DNA of 64,000 bases from Candidatus Altimarinota bacterium (lineage in GTDB: Bacteria; Patescibacteriota; Gracilibacteria; JBDHUY01). Where the stretch lies: assembly GCA_039809385.1 (NCBI GenBank), contig JBDHUY010000002.1, positions 32,001-96,000 of the forward strand, read 5' to 3'. The first letter of the stretch is position 1. Each line of letters starts with the position of its first letter. The translations under genes and the position numbers were made by a program. The notes beneath the pieces were generated by a model. That model worked only from the letters and a program-made list of their open reading frames with translations. It was not told where the DNA came from and made no database searches. Below are positions 5,164 to 32,598 of this stretch, piece by piece.

Positions 5164-5248
5164 TTTGTCGATGCCTGAAGGATAAATGACGACCTACCCC
5201 CCTCCGCTTTACAAACTTTACGGACTTTATCATTTTATAGACTCTCCT

Positions 5249-8200
5249 ATGTTCAAACCCGTTAATCCCAAGGTCAGTTTTTCCGAAATCGAGAAAGAGA
5301 TTCTCTCATATTGGAAAAATAACCGGATTTTTGAACGTTCAATAAAACAGCGCACTCAGAAAGAGTTTACTTTTTACGACGGGCCGCCGTTTGCCACGGG
5401 ACTTCCTCACTATGGCCATTTGCTGGCCGGAACATTAAAGGATGTCATTCCGCGTTACTGGACGATGAAAGGGTATCGCGTCGAGCGTCGTTTCGGCTGG
5501 GACTGTCACGGCCTCCCGGTAGAAAACGAAAAGGAAAAAGAACTCGGGATAACCGGTAAAAAAGATATCGAAGCGATGGGGGTCGGCGCTTTTAACGAAG
5601 CCTGCCGCTCGATCGTGCAGCGCTATGCAGGTGAGTGGCGCCAGACCGTGGAACGCACGGGCCGCTGGGTCGATATGGATAACGACTACAAGACCATGGA
5701 TACCAGCTATATGGAATCGATCTGGTGGGTCTTTAAACAGTTGTGGGATAAAGGATATGTGTATGAGGGAAAGAAAGCGATGCAGATCTGTCCGCGCTGC
5801 GTGACCCCCCTATCGAACTTTGAAGTGACGCAAGGGTATAAAGATATTACCGACTGGTCAGTGATTGCTAAATTTCCTATTACAGATCCAGATTTCTTGA
5901 AAAAGTACGGGAACGGAATAAAGACCAGCTTTATCGCCTGGACCACCACACCGTGGAGTATTCCAACCACGATGGGACTGGCGATTGGTCCAGACTTTGA
6001 CTATGTGTTGGTGCGTACCGGCGAGGAACAGATTATTGTTGCCAAAAATCGTCTTGAATATGCGGTAAAATCCCTAGAAGAGGGGAGTTGGGAGGTCGTG
6101 GAAGAATTGAAAGGCAAGGAACTGACCGGTCTTGCGTACGAACATCCATATGCATTTATTTATGGACAGAACGAAGAGGTGAAGAATAATGCCAACGTTT
6201 ACAAAACCTACGCTACAGATTATGTCAGTATCGAAGACGGTACCGGTATTGTTACTATCAATGGTGCTTTCGGTGAAATCGATATGGAGGCGGCCAACCG
6301 TTTGGAATTACCGATCGTGATTAACGTCAAAATGGACGGAACGTATACTGACGACATGGGTGAACTGGCCGGGCATCACGTCAAACCCAAAGAGGATCCG
6401 ACCAAGATGGATCAGAAAATCGCCGAAGATCTTGAAAGCCGCGGGTTTCTGTTTCGCCGCGAAAAGTATTTGCACAGTTATCCGCACTGCTGGCGCTGTG
6501 ATACTCCTCTTTTAAATTACGCTACCACCAGCTGGTTTGTATCAGTGACCAAATTAAAGGAGAAGTTGTTGAAAAATAACGATAAAACATCCTGGGTGCC
6601 GGATAATATCAAGTACGGCCGTTTCGGAAAATGGCTTGAGAATGCGCGCGACTGGGCTATTTCGCGCAACCGTTACTGGGGATCGGTTATGCCGGTATGG
6701 AAATGCGATAGTTGTGAAAAAGTCGAGGTTCTCGGCAGTCTGGAGGATCTGCGTGCTAAAGTTCCGGAACGAATGACCAAGCTTATTCTGATGCGTCACG
6801 GCGAAAGCGAAACCAATGTCAAAACCGAAGTCTGGTCAAAAGACGATCGCTATCCTCTCACTGAAAATGGACAAAAAGAGATTCATACGCTTGCCGCCGA
6901 CCTGGAACACTATGATGTCATGCTTGTTTCGCCCGTACTGCGAGCCCGTCAGAGTGCCGATATTCTCAAACAAAAGTATGGTACTGATTATGCGGTCGTT
7001 GAGCAGTTACGCGAAAATAATATGGGTACGTGGGAGGGACTACCTGCGGCAGAACATCTGGAACAGCTCAAAAAATATCATGAACTGCCTTTGCAAGAAC
7101 GCTATCAAGCCCGGATGGGTGGCGGAGAGAATTGGGTCGACATTGAAGCGCGGGTCTCCGAATTTCTCAAAAACACACTCTCGCAGTATCGCGGCAAAAC
7201 CGTAGCGATCGTGACACACAAATCGATCATCGTTACGCTACACAAACAGTTAAGCGACTGGACGCTGAATCGTTTCTTTGCGATCGACGAGGGCGCCGAG
7301 TGGCTCAATAAAAGCGTTATCTATGTCGATAACGAGACCGGCAAAGAATTCGATCTGCATAAGCATGTGGTTGATGAAATCACGTTTAAATGCTCTCCCC
7401 CTGATAAGGGGGAGTTGGAGGGGGGTTCTCACTGTTCAGGTACTATGAGACGCATTCCCGAAGTGCTCGACTGCTGGTTCGAATCGGGCAGTATGCCCTA
7501 TGCTCAGGTGCATTATCCGTTTGAAAATAAAGAAAAGTTTGAACAAAACTTCCCGGCCGATTTTATCGCCGAAGGGCAGGATCAGACCCGCGGCTGGTTC
7601 TATACGCTGATGGTGCTTTCGACCGCCTTGTTTGACCAGCCGGCATTTAAAAACGTGATCGTCAATGGCGTGATCCTCGCCGAGGACGGCAAAAAGATGA
7701 GCAAGCGTCTGAAAAACTATCCCGATCCGGCCTATATGCTGGATACGTATGGTGCCGACGCGATGCGTTTTTATCTTATGAATTCTCCGGCAGTGCAGGC
7801 CCAGGATCTGCGCTTCTCCGAAAAGGGAGTGGATGAAGTTGTTAAGTCGATTCTCCTGCCGTTCTGGAATGCGTACAGCTTTTTCGTGACGTATGCGAAT
7901 ATTGACGGGTGGGATTCAAACGGTCAGCGGTCAGTAATCAGCAAGCAGCAAGGAAAGGCCGACAGCCGACAGCTGACAGCTGACAGCTATGACCCCCAAC
8001 TTTTTTCCAACAAACTTGACCAGTGGATTCTGTCCGAACTTCAGGCCACGGTGGAGCTGGTGACCCAGCGACTGGACAAGTACGATCTTTCCGGTGCGAC
8101 CGAGCCCCTGGCAGCCTTTATCGATGGACTTACCAACTGGTATATCCGTCGTTCGCGTCGGCGTTTCTGGAAATCGGAAAACGATACAGATAAAAACGAA

Positions 8201-9202
8201 GCATATACGGCACTCTACACAGTGCTGGTGACTTTTTCCCAATTATTAGCGCCATTTGTGCCGTTTATTTCCGAGGAAATCTATCGCAGTCTGACGGGCG
8301 AGGATTCGGTACATCTCACCGATTGGCCGCAAGTAAATCGAAATCTGCTGAATGTCTCTCTCAATACCGAGATCGATCTGGTGCGGACGGTGGTGACACT
8401 GGGATTGTCGTTACGGGCCAAAAACAAGGCCAAGGTGCGCCAGCCTTTGAGCAAACTACAGGTTGTGGTACCTGAACATCTTCGTGGTGTTGTAACAGCC
8501 TATCATGATGTGATTGCCGAAGAGTTGAATGTGAAAGTGGTCGACTTGTTGCACGATTCGAGCGAGATCTCGGTCAAAATGATTAAGCCGATCGGGGCGC
8601 TGGTGGGACCGAAGTTTGGCAAAGACGCTCAAGCAGTGATTACCAATGCTAAGACTGGCAACTTCCGGGAAGCAAGCGGCCAGCGGTCAGCGATCAGTGA
8701 TCAGGAGGGGCCAGAAAAATCCCCTCTTGAGAGGGGTGGCCCGGAGGGCCGGGGTGTGAGCCTCGAAGGCACGAATGATTCTTCACAAGATACTTCTCGA
8801 AATCCCGGTTTGATCGTCTTTGACGGCCAAGGCAAGGAATGGGAGCTACTATCGAATGAATATGAAGTGGTCTACTCGGGTAAGGAGGGCTTTGACGCGG
8901 CCTCGAATCAAGGCGTGGTGGTCTCTCTGGATCTGCATGTTACCGAAGAACTGCGGCTGGAAGGGCTTGCCCGCGATCTGGTGCGCGCGATTCAGGATAT
9001 GCGCAAAGAGACCAACTATCAGGTTTCCGACCGTATTCGGATTTCTTTGCAAGGAGTTGATCCGCAGGTTTTGGCTCAATTTCAGGAGTATATTGTGAGT
9101 GAGACGCTGTGTTCGAAGTTGGAAGAAAAGTTGGAGAATCCGGATCTGGAAAGGGAGATTGAGCTGGAAGGGGAGAAGGTACTGGTAGGTATAAAGCGCT
9201 AG
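5249..9202 (+). CDS. ileS: Isoleucine--tRNA ligase (type 2, eukaryote-like) with inserted histidine-phosphatase domain and three repeat-derived peptide inserts
   Basis: DGPPFATGLPHYGH, GWDCHGLP, WTTTPW, KMSKR; start at 5249 (MFKPVNPK) preferred; RHGE domain about 6773-7335. Confidence 0.97.
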   Translation: MFKPVNPKVSFSEIEKEILSYWKNNRIFERSIKQRTQKEFTFYDGPPFATGLPHYGHLLAGTLKDVIPRYWTMKGYRVERRFGWDCHGLPVENEKEKELGITGKKDIEAMGVGAFNEACRSIVQRYAGEWRQTVERTGRWVDMDNDYKTMDTSYMESIWWVFKQLWDKGYVYEGKKAMQICPRCVTPLSNFEVTQGYKDITDWSVIAKFPITDPDFLKKYGNGIKTSFIAWTTTPWSIPTTMGLAIGPDFDYVLVRTGEEQIIVAKNRLEYAVKSLEEGSWEVVEELKGKELTGLAYEHPYAFIYGQNEEVKNNANVYKTYATDYVSIEDGTGIVTINGAFGEIDMEAANRLELPIVINVKMDGTYTDDMGELAGHHVKPKEDPTKMDQKIAEDLESRGFLFRREKYLHSYPHCWRCDTPLLNYATTSWFVSVTKLKEKLLKNNDKTSWVPDNIKYGRFGKWLENARDWAISRNRYWGSVMPVWKCDSCEKVEVLGSLEDLRAKVPERMTKLILMRHGESETNVKTEVWSKDDRYPLTENGQKEIHTLAADLEHYDVMLVSPVLRARQSADILKQKYGTDYAVVEQLRENNMGTWEGLPAAEHLEQLKKYHELPLQERYQARMGGGENWVDIEARVSEFLKNTLSQYRGKTVAIVTHKSIIVTLHKQLSDWTLNRFFAIDEGAEWLNKSVIYVDNETGKEFDLHKHVVDEITFKCSPPDKGELEGGSHCSGTMRRIPEVLDCWFESGSMPYAQVHYPFENKEKFEQNFPADFIAEGQDQTRGWFYTLMVLSTALFDQPAFKNVIVNGVILAEDGKKMSKRLKNYPDPAYMLDTYGADAMRFYLMNSPAVQAQDLRFSEKGVDEVVKSILLPFWNAYSFFVTYANIDGWDSNGQRSVISKQQGKADSRQLTADSYDPQLFSNKLDQWILSELQATVELVTQRLDKYDLSGATEPLAAFIDGLTNWYIRRSRRRFWKSENDTDKNEAYTALYTVLVTFSQLLAPFVPFISEEIYRSLTGEDSVHLTDWPQVNRNLLNVSLNTEIDLVRTVVTLGLSLRAKNKAKVRQPLSKLQVVVPEHLRGVVTAYHDVIAEELNVKVVDLLHDSSEISVKMIKPIGALVGPKFGKDAQAVITNAKTGNFREASGQRSAISDQEGPEKSPLERGGPEGRGVSLEGTNDSSQDTSRNPGLIVFDGQGKEWELLSNEYEVVYSGKEGFDAASNQGVVVSLDLHVTEELRLEGLARDLVRAIQDMRKETNYQVSDRIRISLQGVDPQVLAQFQEYIVSETLCSKLEEKLENPDLEREIELEGEKVLVGIKR
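7394..7428 (+). repeat. In-frame CCCCTGATAAGGGG hairpin element in ileS (encodes SPPDKGELEGGS)
   Basis: tctccccctgataagggggagttggaggggggtt; related copies at 13451-13482 (inverted) and 24174-24223. Confidence 0.85.
7921..7990 (+). repeat. In-frame inverted pair of period-7 arrays in ileS (encodes GQRSVISKQQGKADSRQLTADSY)
   Basis: cggtcag-cggtcag-taatcag … gccgaca-gccgaca-gctgaca-gctgaca-gct; same units intergenic at 20175-20211. Confidence 0.85.
8674..8775 (+). repeat. In-frame composite element in ileS: heptamer array plus SPLERG hairpin module
   Basis: agcggccagcggtcagcgatcagtgatcag then tcccctcttgagaggggtg-gcccggagggc-cggggtgtg…ctcgaaggcacgaa; homolog in clpC at 30262-30326. Confidence 0.88.
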
Positions 9203-9443
9203 ATGGAGAATGCAGTCGTCCCGCCACGGCGGGGCGATTTGCACGAAAAAAACTTTAACTTTTTTCTGCATTGTCGGAAGTATGTTTTCAAAATACGGTT
9301 CTCCGGTTTCCTAAATTGGTATGGTCTGTCTTTTTTGCTTCGTTCTAAGAAAGAGATTTTCCATCATTCAAAAAACGCATCATTCTGATTCTCAAAAGCT
9401 AAATCCGCAAGAGATCGAGTCGGACTATACATAATTATCCCAT

Positions 9444-9842
9444 ATGTTTTTCAAACTCTATGCCATAGCGTTTCCCATTTTCCTGGCTGTTGATATGATT
9501 TGGTTGGGATTTCTTGCCAAAGACTTGTATCGTCAACAGATCGGTTTCTTGATGAAAGGTGATATCAATTGGTTGGCGGTCATAATTTTTTACTTTTTGT
9601 TTATAGCGGGACTGGTGTTGTTTGTCATTCTGCCCGCATTTGAAAAACAATCATGGATCAACGCGCTGCTCTTTGGAGCGCTCTTTGGACTGGTAACCTA
9701 TGCTACCTATGATCTGACAAACCTCGCTGTGCTCAAAGACTGGCCCCTGCTGGTGACAATCGTTGACCTGGCGTGGGGAACGATACTCGCAGCTATTGTC
9801 TCAACTGCAACGTATTTTATTGCCGTAACTATCAGGTTATAA
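9444..9842 (+). CDS. DUF2177-family membrane protein
   Basis: DMIWLG…GLVTYATYDLTNLA…DLAWG pattern, 4 TM. Confidence 0.88.
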   Translation: MFFKLYAIAFPIFLAVDMIWLGFLAKDLYRQQIGFLMKGDINWLAVIIFYFLFIAGLVLFVILPAFEKQSWINALLFGALFGLVTYATYDLTNLAVLKDWPLLVTIVDLAWGTILAAIVSTATYFIAVTIRL

Positions 9843-9900
9843 AATCATACAACTATTGCTTCGGTTCTTCAAAACCAAAACCGATGCTGGTATAGGTATA

Positions 9901-10605
9901 CTAATTCATTTTGTATTCTTCCAACCACTTCCGTATAACTCGCGTATCAGGTATTCCACTTCGTACATTATAATATCGCAGCACCGGAACCCCTTCCTCA
10001 GCATTTGGCGGTTCATATTCTGTCATTGAGCGCACCAGGAGTGCTTCATTTCCCTCCCAGGTAATCATCAAAGGATTCGAGTGATCCCGTTGACGCAATC
10101 TCAGTCGTTGAAGAAGCATTGATTTCTTTGTATGTATTTCCAGAATCCGGATATCCGCCTCGTCTGAAAACTGTGCAATAATTTCACGACGGTAGATTTT
10201 TTTACCGTAAATCCCTTCCAAGATAACGCAGTATCCTTGTTCTAAAAGATCTTGAATGCGCAAATACATCAAATAATAGGTCGTATGGGTTTGTTGTGTA
10301 TCGAAGAGAATTACATTTTTGAAAAGTGCTTTGCGGATATTGTCAACTGATACATAGACAGCTGGAATATCCCCGATCAGTGCGCGGCTTACAGTGGATT
10401 TTCCAGAACCGGGAAGTCCGCAAACGATTAAAAAAAGAGGATTCTTACTCCTGCCGACGTCATCTGTAGGCGTAACTGCGCAGACTTTTTTCCACTCGGA
10501 TCTAGCCGGTTTTTTGTGCGAAAAGACACACCCGCAGAGCGATTTATGAATGTACACCATAGCATCCGGTACAATATGAAAATAAATAAACAACGTTTTT
10601 TGCAA
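9901..10605 (-). CDS. P-loop kinase (AAA_33/predicted nucleotide kinase family); true start probably downstream of 10605
   Basis: LIVCGLPGSGKST Walker A, SVDNIRK, VILEG, RLRLR lid. Confidence 0.8.
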   Translation of the reverse strand: MQKTLFIYFHIVPDAMVYIHKSLCGCVFSHKKPARSEWKKVCAVTPTDDVGRSKNPLFLIVCGLPGSGKSTVSRALIGDIPAVYVSVDNIRKALFKNVILFDTQQTHTTYYLMYLRIQDLLEQGYCVILEGIYGKKIYRREIIAQFSDEADIRILEIHTKKSMLLQRLRLRQRDHSNPLMITWEGNEALLVRSMTEYEPPNAEEGVPVLRYYNVRSGIPDTRVIRKWLEEYKMN

Positions 10606-12815: not shown

Positions 12816-14198
12816 ATGCCTCTCAAAATTGAAAAAATAGTATACCCCGGCATTTCGCTCGCCCGCGACAACGGGCTTACCACGTTCCTCAATGGCGGTC
12901 TACCCGGTGAAGAAGTCGAGGTAGAGATCGTCAAAAAGAAAAAGAGTTTTCAGGAAGGGCGCGTATTGCGAGTTGTAGAGCCTTCCCCAGAACGTATCAC
13001 GCCCCGTTGTCCCTCCTTCGGTCGTTGCGGTGGTTGTTCGTTTCAGCATACCGCTTATGAAAATCAGCTTCGTATCAAGGACGAGTATGTCAGAGAATTG
13101 TTGCAAAACTTTTCTATACCCCAATTTTTACCAATTCTGCCGAGTCCCGAAATATGGAATTACCGCAATAAAATGGAGTTCAGTTTCTTCGAAACACCCT
13201 CCGGTCCCGCTGAAGCCAAAGGAGAGGTGACGATCGGGCTGCACGAAAAGGGAGCGTATAACCGCTACTTTCCGGTTCCCCCGTGTTTTATTGCCGATCA
13301 GGATTTTTTGAAGATCGTCGAAGAGATTCAGGCTTTTGCGCGGCGGTCGGGCTTGCAAGTTTACAATCCTACCACGCATCAAGGCTTTTATCGTCATTTG
13401 GTTTTGCGCAAAAGCAAACGGACCGGGCAAGTCCTGGTAAATCTGGTGACAACCCCCCTACACCCCCCTTATCAGGGGGGACAATCCAATACATCTTTTT
13501 TCGATGGTCTGGTTCAGGTTTTGAAAGACCATGTCTCTAGTTTTCACTGGACTGTTAACAATTCGGTGTCGGATGCGGTCAAGGCAGAAGAGGTACATCT
13601 GTTATCAGGTGAACCCATGATTCAAGAACAGATGCAGATAGGGGAACGTTTATACCGCTTTTTTGTTTCGCCTTTCTCTTTTTTTCAGACTAACACGTTT
13701 GGTGCTGAAAAATTATACGAAACAACCTTGAATTTTCTTGATCCAAAAGCGGACGACAAGGTGCTTGATCTCTATTGTGGAACAGGCACAATTGGTTTAA
13801 CGCTTGCTCCCTACGTAAAACAGGTTTTAGGGGTAGAGCAGGTTCCGGATGCGATTCTAGATGCCAAACGAAACAAGGAGATCAATGCGATTTCCAATAT
13901 CGATTTTGAAGTTGGCTCAGTCGAGAAGTGGATCAAGCATGGTACGATTCCCGAATTTAACGCGCTCGTGATTGATCCGCCCCGCGGCGGGGTTTCAAAT
14001 AAGGTTATTGATTTTATCCTCAGAACCAAACCTACTAAAATCGTTTATGTCTCCTGTAATCCTTCCACACTGGCCCGCGACTTGGCTCTTATACTTCGAG
14101 ACACTGATTATAAGATTGATCTGGTGCAGGCGGTGGATATGTTTCCCCAGACGTATCATGTGGAGGTGGTGGTGCGGTTGACAAGAATAAAAAAATAG
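12816..14198 (+). CDS. rlmD: 23S rRNA (uracil-C5)-methyltransferase RlmD/RumA family
   Basis: TRAM domain, CPSFGRCGGCSFQH Fe-S motif, SFFQTN, DLYCGTG, DPPRGG, YVSCNPSTLARD, DMFPQTYHVE. Confidence 0.95.
   Translation: MPLKIEKIVYPGISLARDNGLTTFLNGGLPGEEVEVEIVKKKKSFQEGRVLRVVEPSPERITPRCPSFGRCGGCSFQHTAYENQLRIKDEYVRELLQNFSIPQFLPILPSPEIWNYRNKMEFSFFETPSGPAEAKGEVTIGLHEKGAYNRYFPVPPCFIADQDFLKIVEEIQAFARRSGLQVYNPTTHQGFYRHLVLRKSKRTGQVLVNLVTTPLHPPYQGGQSNTSFFDGLVQVLKDHVSSFHWTVNNSVSDAVKAEEVHLLSGEPMIQEQMQIGERLYRFFVSPFSFFQTNTFGAEKLYETTLNFLDPKADDKVLDLYCGTGTIGLTLAPYVKQVLGVEQVPDAILDAKRNKEINAISNIDFEVGSVEKWIKHGTIPEFNALVIDPPRGGVSNKVIDFILRTKPTKIVYVSCNPSTLARDLALILRDTDYKIDLVQAVDMFPQTYHVEVVVRLTRIKK
13451..13482 (-). repeat. 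In-frame CCCCTGATAAGGGG hairpin element in rlmD, inverted (encodes TPLHPPYQGG)
   Basis: Reverse complement gtcccccctgataaggggggtgtaggggggtt matches the ileS 7394-7428 copy. Confidence 0.85.
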
Positions 14199-29351: not shown

Positions 29352-32300
29352 TTATTGCGAAGTATTTTCGACTGTTACTTGGCTGTTTTTACGCGCATTC
29401 GTCATTTTATCCGCAGGAGCCGTTGTCCCGGTATCGGGAGCGGGGACAGATTCATCGGTTAGTCGAGTATCGGGTGCTTTTTCGGCTGGGGATGGCGTGG
29501 TTGTTCCTGCTAAACGATCATCAGCGGGAGTCTCCTCTTGAGAAGGCATAGCATTCTCGGGAGAATTGTTATTGGTTTGAGCCACAGCCTCTATTTCTTG
29601 CGGTGTTCCGAAACTCTCAACTTTTGTAAACGTAAACTTTTCTTTGATTACATCGCAAAATACTTTGTCGTTGTTCACAAATCTGCTGCCTAAGATCAGA
29701 TCGGAGAGCGGCGTATCGATCATCTGCTGAATCACGCGTTTAAGAGGTCTCGCTCCGAATTGCGGATCATAGCCCAGGTCGGCCAATTTGGCCTTGGCAG
29801 CGTCGCTTAGCTGAAGCAGTATCTCGTTTTCTTTCAAATTTTGAACCGTTTCGCGCATCATCACGTCGACGATGCTCATGATGTCTTTTTTCTGCAGCGG
29901 TTCGAACACGATCAGCTCATCAAACCGATTGATCATTTCAGGCCGCAGAAACTGTTTCAGATCTTCGATCAAGTCTTTCTTAAGCGATTCTATGAAAGCT
30001 TTTTTACGCAAATCTTCTGCCGGTTCCGTAGCAGTACCTTGTTGCGCTTCCGTCGTTGAAGCACTTTGTTCGGAAGAGCTATTTTCAGCCGAAGCAAAGA
30101 GCATAAGATCGGTCTCTTTTTCTTCAATAACCGCAGGGAGGTTCAGGTTGCGAGTGAGAAGAGGGGAGTCTGGAGAGAATGTATCTGGTATCTGGTATTT
30201 AGTATCTGGGATATTCTGGTCAGAACCCGGAGTTGAGAGTTGGTTGCTGGCTGGTTGATTCTTCGTGCCTTCAAGTTCCACACCCCGCTCCGACGCTGCG
30301 GTCGGAGCACCCCTCTCGAGAGGGGATGCTTCAGGCTGTGAGCTGTTGGCTTCCTGCTGACCGCTGTTTGAAGCATAGAATTCCATCATTTTCTCCTGAA
30401 TCTTGGTAGACCCCACGTTGCTGGTACAAATGATGATCGTATTTTTGAAACTGGCGACCCGGCCTTTGCTGTCGGTCAGTCGACCGTCGTCGAACATTTG
30501 TAAAAACAGATTGAAGATGTCTTTGTGGGCTTTTTCGATCTCGTCGAACAGTACGACCGAAAAAGGGTGTTTGCGCACCGCTTCGGTAAGTTGTCCTCCC
30601 TCTTCGTAACCGACATATCCGGGCGGTGCTCCGACAAGCCGAAAGTAAGAGTGTTTCTCCATATATTCGCTCATGTCAAAACGGATCATGGCGTCCTCGG
30701 TTCCGAAAAGATATTCGGCCAGCGTCTTGGCTAGTTCGGTTTTTCCGACGCCGGTAGGGCCCATGAACAGAAACGTTCCGATCGGTTTGTTAGCCTTTTT
30801 CAAACCTGCTCGGCCACGCCGAATCGCCTGTGAAACCAGTTTTACTGCTTCATCTTGTCCGATCAAGCGCTTATGCAAGTAATCTTCCATCTTGAGCAAC
30901 CGCTCACTTTCGGATTCGCGGATATGCCGTAACGGAATTCCTGTCCATTTCGAGATAATTTCGCGTAACGTATCTTTTTGGATGGTATCGTGCTGTTTGG
31001 CCTTTTCTTGTTCGACTTCTTCTTTGGTCTCGTCCAGAACTTTTTGCTGCTGCTCTATCTGTCCGCTCAGTTTTTCGATCTCTTCGGTCAAGTTGTTGCG
31101 CTTGGCCGATTCCAGCTGTTTGTTGAGTAGTTCGATTTTTGCTTCCAGCGCTTGAATTTTACGCGGAGCCGAAAAAGAGGGGAGACGGGTGGCCGCGCCC
31201 GCTTCGTCGATCAGATCGATCGTTTTGTCGGGCTGAAAGCGGTCAGCGATATAACGACTGCTGAGTTTGATAGCTTCGACCAACACGTCGTCGGGAATCA
31301 TGACCCGATGATACGCTTCGTATTTGTCGCGCAGACCTTTGACGATCTCCAGCGTTTCGTCGAATCCTGGTTCGGGCACGACTACCGGCTGAAAACGACG
31401 TTCCAGGGCAGCGTCTTTTTCGATATATTTATGATATTCGTTTGTCGTGGTGGCTCCGATACACTGAATTTCGCCGCGTGCCAGCACGGGTTTTAAAATA
31501 TTGGCGGTATCGTTATTGCTATCTGATGAGATCAGTGTGTGAATTTCGTCGATAAATAGTATTACTTCGCCGTTGGTAGCTTTGGTCTCTTTGAGAATAT
31601 TTTGCAACCGTTCTTCGAATTCGCCGCGCTTACTCGCTCCGGCTAGCAAGGAATTAAACGACAATCCGACGATGCGTTTTCCTTTCAGAATATCGGGAAT
31701 ATCGCCGGTAACCATGCGATAGGCGAGACCTTCGACAATGGCGGTTTTTCCGACTCCGGCTTCGCCGACCAGTACGGGGTTGTTTTTGCGCCGGCGCGAC
31801 AGAATCTGTAAAACGCGTTCGATCTCGTCGCCGCGGCCGATTACGGGATCGAGCTTGCCTTCGCGGGCCCGGTTACTGAGGTCTTCGCCGAATTTGTCGA
31901 GCAGGGGGGTGGAAACCTGGATTGTGCCGACCTCCTCTTTGCCTTTCCCGACGATTTCCAGCACCGCGTTCACGGCATTTTCATACAAAACACCGAAGCG
32001 TTTGAGGATTTGAAAACCCATGCCTTCGCCTTCTTTGATGACTCCCAGCAGCAGATGTTCTCCTTCCAAGTAGTGATGCCGGAAGGTGAGTTGTTCTTCC
32101 TGGGCCAGATCGAATACCCGTTTGGTGCGAGGCGAAAGGTTTGGCTCCGTCTTGAGGATTTTTCCGGTATTAGTGAGATTGTATTTCAAATACTCTTTGA
32201 TCCCTTCCAAATTTGTACCAAGACGTTCGAAGATTTTGGACAGAACTTCGTCTTTCAGATCAAGCAATCCGAGCAGAATATACTCGGTGCCGACGATATC

Positions 32301-32402
32301 AGTGCCGCGCTTTTTTGCTTCGGATTTGGCATAGGCCAGGATCTTTTGGGTATGTTCGGAAAAGTTTTCCGGCAAAGCGGTATTTGTATTGGTTTCCGGC
32401 AT
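29352..32402 (-). CDS. clpC: ATP-dependent Clp/Hsp100 ATPase (ClpC/ClpB type) with repeat-derived insert in AAA-2
   Basis: Two Clp-N repeats, [49 protein letters not shown]; start at 32402 preferred. Confidence 0.92.
30145..30370 (-). repeat. In-frame concatenation of at least four repeat families inside clpC
   Basis: Encodes [12 protein letters not shown] (CAGC heptamers), [21 protein letters not shown] (hairpin), [11 protein letters not shown] (CAGATAC heptamers), [10 protein letters not shown] (CTCC heptamers). Confidence 0.85.
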
Positions 32403-32598
32403 CGTTTTTGTTTTGAGAAAATAAGACTTCAAATAAGTATACTACAAACCTCTCCCAAAAGGAAGCATCTTCATGTAAATGATATGGCTGTTTTTTTATG
32501 AATAACTCTCACAATTTATCATTCAATGATATTTCCTTATTGGTTAGGGTAAAATGACAATTTTTCAATTTCAAAACACATTATACAACTATTTTTAG

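Follow-up and report, generated by a model that had tools for sequence, protein, structure and literature searches.

Hairpin-plus-G-box repeats in housekeeping genes of a Candidatus Altimarinota genome and their association with DUF559 genes

The stretch of DNA analysed here (the window) comprises 64,000 nucleotides from Candidatus Altimarinota bacterium and spans positions 32001-96000 of contig C2 in an assembly of 1,872,140 bases and 26 contigs (genome label G000). It carries two copies of a short composite module, one within ileS (8720-8775) and the other on the minus strand within a gene for a Clp/Hsp100 ATPase (30326-30262). An earlier examination made without database searches, hereafter called the sequence-only reading, described the two copies as a defined mobile cassette with a swappable inner hairpin rather than a product of slippage. 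The letters and coordinates that it gave for both copies match the window exactly. We find that the module belongs to a repeat family dispersed through the genome, other members of which bracket genes of the DUF559 family. The repeat family and its tie to the ends of DUF559 genes are well supported. It is also probable, with less assurance, that each 56-65-nt repeat represents one end of a DUF559 element, occurring solo and non-autonomous, and did not arise by local slippage.

Repeat families in host genes and around DUF559 genes

The module found at the two window sites, which we call family A, is composed of the hairpin TCCCCTCTNGAGAGGGG, a variable inner hairpin, the sequence CGGGGTGTG (the G-box) and a 14-nt tail (Table 1). 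Both window copies are in a common frame inside long open reading frames (ORFs) and translate as SPLERG..RGV.LEGT, just as had been noticed before. A pattern for the hairpin and another for the G-box plus tail each match the window twice, exactly at the ileS and Clp sites, and the chance expectation for both patterns is 0.00 in 100 dinucleotide-preserving shuffles of the window. As single-stranded DNA (ssDNA), the ileS copy is predicted to fold with -15.1 kcal/mol (z -3.39). Some details of the earlier description need amendment. The tail is conserved as claimed but is not free of palindromes, as the ileS copy holds a 4-bp hairpin (GCCT-CGA-AGGC) in this region. Pfam confirms ileS as the gene for isoleucyl-tRNA synthetase (IleRS), but the gene that had been named clpC codes for a Clp ATPase for which ClpB and ClpC are not distinguishable. 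Its insert lies between the Pfam domains AAA_2 (aa 549-690) and ClpB_D2-small (aa 846-924).

Further genomic copies, for which the sequence-only reading had proposed a search, do exist. The hairpin pattern occurs at nine loci in the 1.87-Mb genome, of which five are solos and four flank DUF559 genes. When aligned, the nine copies share a common order of A-rich lead, hairpin, TG or GT(A) linker, inner hairpin, G-box, and a tail ending in CACGRA. The inner hairpin is identical in the ileS and lepA copies, and one of the four DUF559-flanking copies has none. All four solos located in genes have the same orientation and the same frame. The fifth, which is intergenic, directly follows an ORF. Hexamer runs (C1 ~91700-91830; L016 2700-2830, minus strand) that encode PEPEPE, TETETE and GAGAGA lie at the 3' end of the 151-aa ORF directly upstream of this intergenic copy.

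A second family, B, has 11 copies, including two that flank a gene and nine solos, two of which are in the window. Among the solos of both families (5 of family A and 9 of family B), seven reside within long housekeeping ORFs and an eighth is located just upstream of zwf, with host genes identified by Pfam. A search of Rfam with five module-holding loci, at E values up to 1, returned no relevant match; those to mir-3938 and anti-hemB are at chance level.

The four DUF559-flanking copies of family A form two inverted pairs, one around each of two paralogous 126-aa ORFs on contig C6. These ORFs are 87% identical and occupy the junctions between the genes for an Rrf2-type regulator, sufC and sufB. 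In each unit, a forward module ends just before the ATG start codon, and the tail of a reverse-complemented module overlaps the stop codon. Both ORFs score well above the gathering cut-off (20.6 bits) of Pfam DUF559 (PF04480), with 115.9 and 111.9 bits (E 1e-33 and 1.8e-32), and both match PDB entry 3hrl, a solved structure described as an 'endonuclease-like protein' (E 1.3e-18). Their scores of 72-80 bits against the NCBIfam equivalog PRK09767 are far under its cut-off of 218, and thus the genes are members of the DUF559 family and not YcjD orthologues.

A third DUF559 gene (C3:113520-113173) also exceeds the PF04480 cut-off (E 1.1e-29) and is 41% identical to the C6 paralogues. It is bracketed by an inverted pair of family B modules, which consist of CCCCCTGAyAAGGGGG, CTA and the G-box. 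The genome therefore holds two DUF559 lineages, each with its own matching solo family. The only Y1_Tnp-like ORF of the genome serves as an internal control: a different palindrome family, with 14 copies, flanks it.

None of ten sufC loci from relatives has a DUF559 gene within 1.5 kb, and sufC is adjacent to sufB in four of these and to the Rrf2-type gene in one. This indicates that the C6 DUF559 units are insertions. G178, a genome of the same class but a different family, has a DUF559 gene directly downstream of sufC (L248, C45:1163-4489), as in G000. This placement could reflect a site preference, or an old insertion followed by later losses.

Table 1. Features of the window (C2:32001-96000, window coordinates) and solo module copies in the genome
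Feature	Position	Strand	Description
ileS ORF	5186..9202	+	1338 aa; Pfam tRNA-synt_1 (E 1.2e-141) and Anticodon_1 (E 1.8e-34); hosts one family A and one family B module
Family B module, solo, in ileS	7397..7428	+	CCCCCTGATAAGGGGG and G-box; SPPDKGELEGG flanked by two Cys pairs
Lineage-specific insert in ileS, approximate	8671..8805	+	~44 aa: heptamer array, 15-nt spacer, module, ~30 nt more
Tandem heptamer array	8675..8704	+	CAGCGGT/CAGCGAT/CAGTGAT, ~3.4 units; Tandem Repeats Finder (TRF)
Family A module, solo, in ileS	8720..8775	+	Translated as SPLERGGPEGRGVSLEGT
Parts of the ileS family A module		+	Hairpin 8720-8736, TG, inner hairpin GCCCGGAGGGC 8739-8749, G-box CGGGGTGTG 8750-8758, AGC, tail 8762-8775
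Family B module, solo	13445..13480	-	In tRNA/rRNA U5-methyltransferase-like ORF (12816..14195, +); antisense to the gene; read HPPYQGG
Clp/Hsp100 ATPase ORF	29352..32432	-	1026 aa; Pfam Clp_N, AAA, AAA_2, ClpB_D2-small
Lineage-specific insert region in Clp gene, approximate	30005..30389	-	~120 aa: module and other low-complexity sequence
Family A module, solo, in Clp gene	30262..30326	-	21-aa reading
Parts of the Clp family A module		-	Hairpin 30326-30310, TG, inner hairpin 30307-30288, G-box CGGGGTGTG 30287-30279, GAA, tail 30275-30262
Family A solos, genome			ileS; Clp gene; lepA (C2:137109); UvrD-type helicase with PDDEXK_1 nuclease domain (C10:26914); intergenic (C1:91670)
Family B solos, genome			ileS (window 7397); U5-methyltransferase-like gene (window 13480, opposite orientation); the UvrD-type helicase that also hosts family A; phosphoketolase; upstream of zwf; four others

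Several neighbouring features deserve mention in their own right. A complete histidine-phosphatase domain (His_Phos_1, E 4.6e-34) is located within the catalytic domain of IleRS (window 6782-7285, ileS aa 533-700) and cuts the tRNA-synt_1 match into two. The Clp ATPase carries a C-terminal extension of roughly 100 aa that is rich in Pro, Thr and Ala (window 29352-29700). The Y1_Tnp-like ORF noted above (216 aa; L255 583-1690, C2:139583-140688, outside the window) scores 21.1 bits, under the cut-off of 23, and its inverted flanking palindrome is GGTTCCARGTnnnACYTGGAACC. This locus looks like a classical arrangement of REP (repetitive extragenic palindromic) sequences with a REP-associated tyrosine transposase (RAYT).

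Host-gene inserts and modules compared across genomes and metagenomes

Orthologues of both host genes in relatives lack the insert regions, which agrees with the mobile cassette of the sequence-only reading. The ileS insert is missing from all nine aligned orthologues, taken from 11 relatives' loci with L008 and L011 left out; the translation of L002 is frameshifted beyond the region of interest. These relatives are ~40-50% identical, so the ends of the insert are approximate. For the Clp gene, the matches in 19 of 20 relatives cover query residues 1 to ~80-98 and again ~195-223 to 300, and the two blocks are contiguous in several of them. No target-site duplication is visible in the flanks by eye, where the ends of the inserts are not fixable without close empty sites. 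In one X6 contig, the segment 7384-7450, which includes the family B module of ileS, is replaced by 34 other letters, making it 33 nt shorter and in frame. This contig (depth 2, matched side of 32 nt, likeness set to 88) is probably from another, related organism, and offers a weak hint of an empty site.

Among the forward frames of the four genic family A copies, frame 0 alone is open in all, and stop codons interrupt frames 1 and 2 in two or three copies each. In the reverse direction, three of the four copies have every frame open, and thus the common orientation needs more than stop codons to account for it. The earlier suggestion that the common frame reflects selection on tolerated peptides is sustained insofar as this frame looks like a filter for translatable copies. 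The inner hairpins of the genic copies are 11, 11, 20 and 17 nt in length, with differences that are multiples of three, and that of the intergenic copy is 15 nt. Because the open frame and these lengths keep both halves of the module in frame, the inserts appear to be translated and not removed. In some genomes of the same class (G012, G017, G020, G022, G029 and G030), conserved genes contain in-frame TGA codons, which suggests TGA recoding in part of the class; the genes of G000 are open under table 11.

The window sequence is present in activated-sludge and wastewater runs of two studies, and X1 or X2 may be the source sample. At the ileS family A site, where a chimera had been considered, X1 contig record 3 (8436-10308) bridges the module with 0 differences, as does X2 contig record 10 (7662-8794), although the latter stops a mere 19 nt beyond the module on the 3' side. 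The ileS family B module is covered without differences by contigs of X2 and X6, and the copy at 13445-13480 by X5 contig record 24. Contigs from the second study cover both of these family B modules. The runs of that study have no cover over 8404-9339, leaving the ileS family A site without an independent check.

A scan of named genomes yielded 600 candidate stretches, and 594 of these code for proteins related to this DUF559 protein. Bacteroidota account for most of the best 80, and others come from Ignavibacteriota, Fidelibacterota, Patescibacteria and further groups. Typical flanks include a hairpin, yTA and a G-box just before the start codon, with the reverse complement just after the stop codon. 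A regular expression detects hairpin plus G-box at 63 of 78 DUF559 loci, and the left and right modules are identical over 27-35 nt in many loci. When flank-to-flank inverted repeats were scored for 81 loci (one locus with Ns was skipped), 40 reached the threshold of 18, compared with control medians of 9 and 9.5 and control maxima of 18 and 15. The two C6 units of G000 score 14.5 and 13, which is under this threshold because the inner hairpins of each pair differ.

Module types also correspond to DUF559 types. On a quick tree of DUF559 proteins, module type clusters: it needs 21 changes, compared with 45 on average after shuffling, which is descriptive only, since kin share labels. A search for four module variants in five genomes gave 10, 2, 2, 6 and 2 copies; each variant was confined to the genome or genomes whose own DUF559 gene carries it, and two copies flanked that gene in every case. 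The family A pattern is present in just 2 of 301 genomes of the class, and in the second, G178, it is located just upstream of a DUF559 gene. Among related genomes, G001 has one DUF559 gene, G014 has two, G178 has three and G017 has none, and the flanks examined in the first three genomes are of the same kind.

In metagenomes, the exact outer parts of the module, with any filler of 4-30 nt, occur in at least 120 contigs. We fetched 80 loci and analysed the 97 modules they contain; many of the contigs are short, with the remainder of each genome unseen. These modules have 69 distinct inner hairpin sequences. A stem of at least 3 bp is possible in 90 of the 97, with a paired fraction of 0.62 versus 0.375 in shuffles, and the loops are mostly of the three-base form G-N-A (GAA 24, GCA 7, GGA 6, GTA 4). 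Unusual stability is a property of DNA hairpins with G-N-A triloops and would accord with a single-stranded DNA stage. Within G000, the inner hairpin of the Clp copy reappears, reverse-complemented and with 1 mismatch in 20, at the right end of the second DUF559 unit. Direct reading gives 6 differences; the relationship is a loop flip. Thus, structure seems to be held at a fixed position while the sequence turns over. The 'swappable' inner hairpin of the sequence-only reading is borne out as rapid turnover in place, including one loop flip, and not as an exchange of cassettes.

By eye, the 14-nt tail is not conserved after the G-box in the metagenome copies. It is common to the solos of G000 and the ends of its DUF559 units, which ties these solos to the resident units. 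Two further ideas were abandoned: a phage vector for the module, as only 4 viral contigs have the pattern, and the classification of metagenome copies as 'genic' from open frames, which is unreliable at high G+C.

A heptamer array had been described as preceding both window copies of family A. The array is clear before the ileS copy, where TRF calls it, but the Clp copy is preceded by one CAGCGGT unit and a decayed 7-nt periodicity that TRF leaves uncalled. Period-7 arrays of at least 3 units number 264 in the genome, against 7 in a shuffled copy (period 6: 71 against 9). About 12 are of the CAGCGRT type, including 5 within ~150 nt of a module. Half of the solos (7/14) lie within 100 nt of a period-7 array, whereas random placement averaged 0.52 and never exceeded 4 in 1000 trials; none of the 6 DUF559-flanking modules is near one. 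A general link between modules and heptamers was dropped because proximity holds for 3 of the 97 metagenome copies, with 2.2 expected. We read the proximity in G000 as a sign that arrays and solos gather in the same few sites that a dense genome tolerates, and a mechanistic link between arrays and solos is also conceivable. Examples of the arrays in the window are at 7961-7988, 8675-8704 and 30181-30209. Many arrays are coding, and peptides such as ADSRQLTADS and SGQRSAISGQ recur in ileS, lepA and the helicase.

Interpretation and competing explanations

Nine genome copies, insert-free orthologues and the many metagenome contigs with different inner hairpins uphold the earlier view of a defined dispersed cassette as opposed to slippage. 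In the model that we favour, a DUF559 gene and its two modules would form a small selfish unit, in which the DUF559 endonuclease might recognise the hairpin/G-box structure. The solos could then be non-autonomous or decayed single ends spread by the DUF559 machinery, akin to REP sequences in their relationship to RAYT transposases. In a small, gene-dense genome, the only places where solos persist would be intergenic DNA and permissive surface loops in which the frame stays open, and the surviving genic copies would be translated as a peptide of 18-21 aa. The inner hairpin would represent a fast-evolving stem-loop at the junction of hairpin and G-box, whose shape is kept while its sequence, length and loop orientation change. 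We infer both the mobility of the cassette itself and the enzymatic role of DUF559, including mobilisation of the modules.

A number of observations weigh against this model. The data described above revealed no transposition event, no excision read and no presence/absence polymorphism, and the empty sites come solely from relatives that are ~40-70% identical. No tested biochemical activity of a DUF559 protein was found in the literature searched. Three of the five genomes searched for module variants have only the two flanking copies, so that proliferation is the exception and the generation of solos would be occasional. In several Mucilaginibacter species, the DUF559 gene seems by eye to lie beside the same downstream sequence, which looks vertical, and at a few DUF559 loci (L087, L101) the modules face outward. 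A consensus scan flags the modules as terminator-like, with 8 such sites versus 3.2 in shuffles, and 4 of the 8 are in left-end modules. Moreover, all solos in G000 are singlets, many of them inside genes, whereas in the systems of REP doublets forming hairpins (REPINs) the doublet is the proposed mobile unit, according to the available part of PMC3116915.

The metagenome data also count against the model, and they speak for its most serious competitor, which we consider unlikely although far from negligible. Here, the module is an independent REP-like or terminator-like repeat that is spread otherwise, for example by another enzyme, by template switching during replication or by gene conversion, and DUF559 genes are selfish genes that home into the modules, or are just insulated by them. 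The association would then reflect target preference, without any mobilisation of the modules by DUF559. By tblastn and hidden Markov model searches, a DUF559 gene is nearby at only 2 of the 80 metagenome loci, leaving 78 that have the exact module and no such neighbour. The module may therefore spread or persist without an adjacent DUF559 gene. It occurs in contigs of 35-70% G+C, and does so in back-to-back doublets and tandem arrays. Terminator-like scores are obtained for the reverse-strand hairpin with its T-run and for the inner hairpin with TGTTTTCTT behind it, and the position of the G178 gene directly after sufC could mean a site preference. What the independent repeat does not readily accommodate is the correspondence between modules and particular DUF559 genes: the tail shared by solos and unit ends of G000 but not seen in metagenome copies, the two DUF559 lineages of one genome that each have a matching solo family, the restriction of each variant to genomes whose DUF559 gene carries it, and the long identities between left and right copies.

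The remaining explanations concern the inserts in host genes, and we hold each of them to be very improbable. The segment could be kept for the function of its peptide, perhaps as a linker or binding motif, and be spread by duplication or conversion of coding sequence. The identical orientation and frame of 4/4 genic family A copies fit this proposal, the more so as all three reverse frames are open in 3/4. However, the same DNA is also intergenic, and it surrounds DUF559 genes in both orientations, where one copy has a stop in that frame. In addition, conservation tracks the DNA hairpin structure while the inner part is completely different between copies, the family B module of the methyltransferase gene runs antisense to it, and other organisms use other frames and orientations. 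This proposal is close to refuted. Equally small is the chance that the insert is removed before the mature protein forms, in the manner of an intron or intein, leaving the host enzymes unaffected. Splicing would need neither an open frame nor inner-hairpin lengths that differ by multiples of three, a rule kept by the genic copies and broken by the intergenic one, and the module has no Rfam family match at E up to 1 and is far too short for an intein. Least probable of all, to the point of being negligible, is that one or both sites are assembly chimeras made by the repeat. Other module copies do give loose contig ends at 8712-8743, but the X1 and X2 contigs cross the ileS family A module without differences (with independence limited, as either may be the source), second-study contigs cover both family B modules of the window, and ORFs are open through all genic copies.

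Relation to known systems

DUF559 is a very common bacterial family with a solved fold and no known role, and the conserved cognate DNA structure on either side of the gene provides a directly testable hypothesis for its substrate. If the favoured model is true, a large family of unknown function gains a concrete substrate, and systems that pair a repeat with a domesticated nuclease, so far known from RAYTs, gain a second enzyme class. In gene-dense genomes, such repeats would then end up translated within essential enzymes: IleRS, a Clp ATPase, LepA, a UvrD-type helicase and a phosphoketolase would carry translated selfish DNA in loops. This is relevant to annotation, to alignment-based phylogeny of such lineages and to the question of how proteins gain inserts. 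Repeats at the flanks of DUF559 genes are not described in the literature searched, which lies outside subscription journals and supplementary files.

The small dispersed repeats (SDRs) of heterocystous cyanobacteria, as Elhai et al. are said to have described them in 2008, are very small hairpin-forming repeats that often lie in tandem heptamer arrays and are sometimes nested. They are reportedly 21-27 nt in length and limited to one subgroup of cyanobacteria, and no endonuclease gene is known to be associated with them. The proximity to heptamers of half of the G000 solos is a point of resemblance, but the metagenome copies do not share it.

Rickettsia palindromic elements (RPEs) are likewise palindromes inserted in frame into unrelated housekeeping genes, where they add a conserved peptide and leave the ORF open (PMC10969869, in part). 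RPEs are ~150 bp and described from Rickettsia, whereas the module is 56-65 nt and comes from another bacterial group, and the portion of that article available to us describes no enzyme gene bracketed by RPEs. The module works like an RPE, a likeness of insertion behaviour that does not establish sequence membership. [quoted passage not shown] Unlike a MITE, a solo is a single end without a pair of terminal inverted repeats, and the full two-ended unit encodes a protein.

On the side of the enzyme, the flanked proteins belong to the Vsr/DUF559/DUF2726 clade of PD-(D/E)XK nucleases, which includes a homing endonuclease of a group I intron (Steczkiewicz et al. 2012, PMC3424549, in part). This homing member offers a selfish-DNA precedent in the fold, but the DUF559 genes described here are free-standing and not in an intron. 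The accessible sections of PMC3424549 and PMC1189080 contain nothing on repeats flanking DUF559.

The closest parallel is with REP/REPIN-RAYT systems as presented by Bertels & Rainey (2011) in the accessible part of PMC3116915. In these, too, each family of short dispersed palindromes is found beside one specific small nuclease or transposase gene whose flanks hold its sequence. Both kinds of repeat are predicted to form ssDNA hairpins and occur as singlets and inverted doublets, the latter seen here in metagenome contigs and in G178. The flanked gene differs, being DUF559 (PD-(D/E)XK, Vsr fold) in place of a Y1/HUH RAYT, and the module is built from a hairpin and a G-box with an optional second hairpin. 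Because a Y1/HUH transposase gene is the defining feature of RAYT systems, the module system is not a member of that group. We tentatively put forward, as a possibility rather than an expectation, that DUF559 proteins act as partner enzymes to a widespread class of hairpin-plus-G-box palindromic repeats, undescribed until now and ranging from candidate phyla to Bacteroidota, and thus a PD-(D/E)XK counterpart of REPIN-RAYT.

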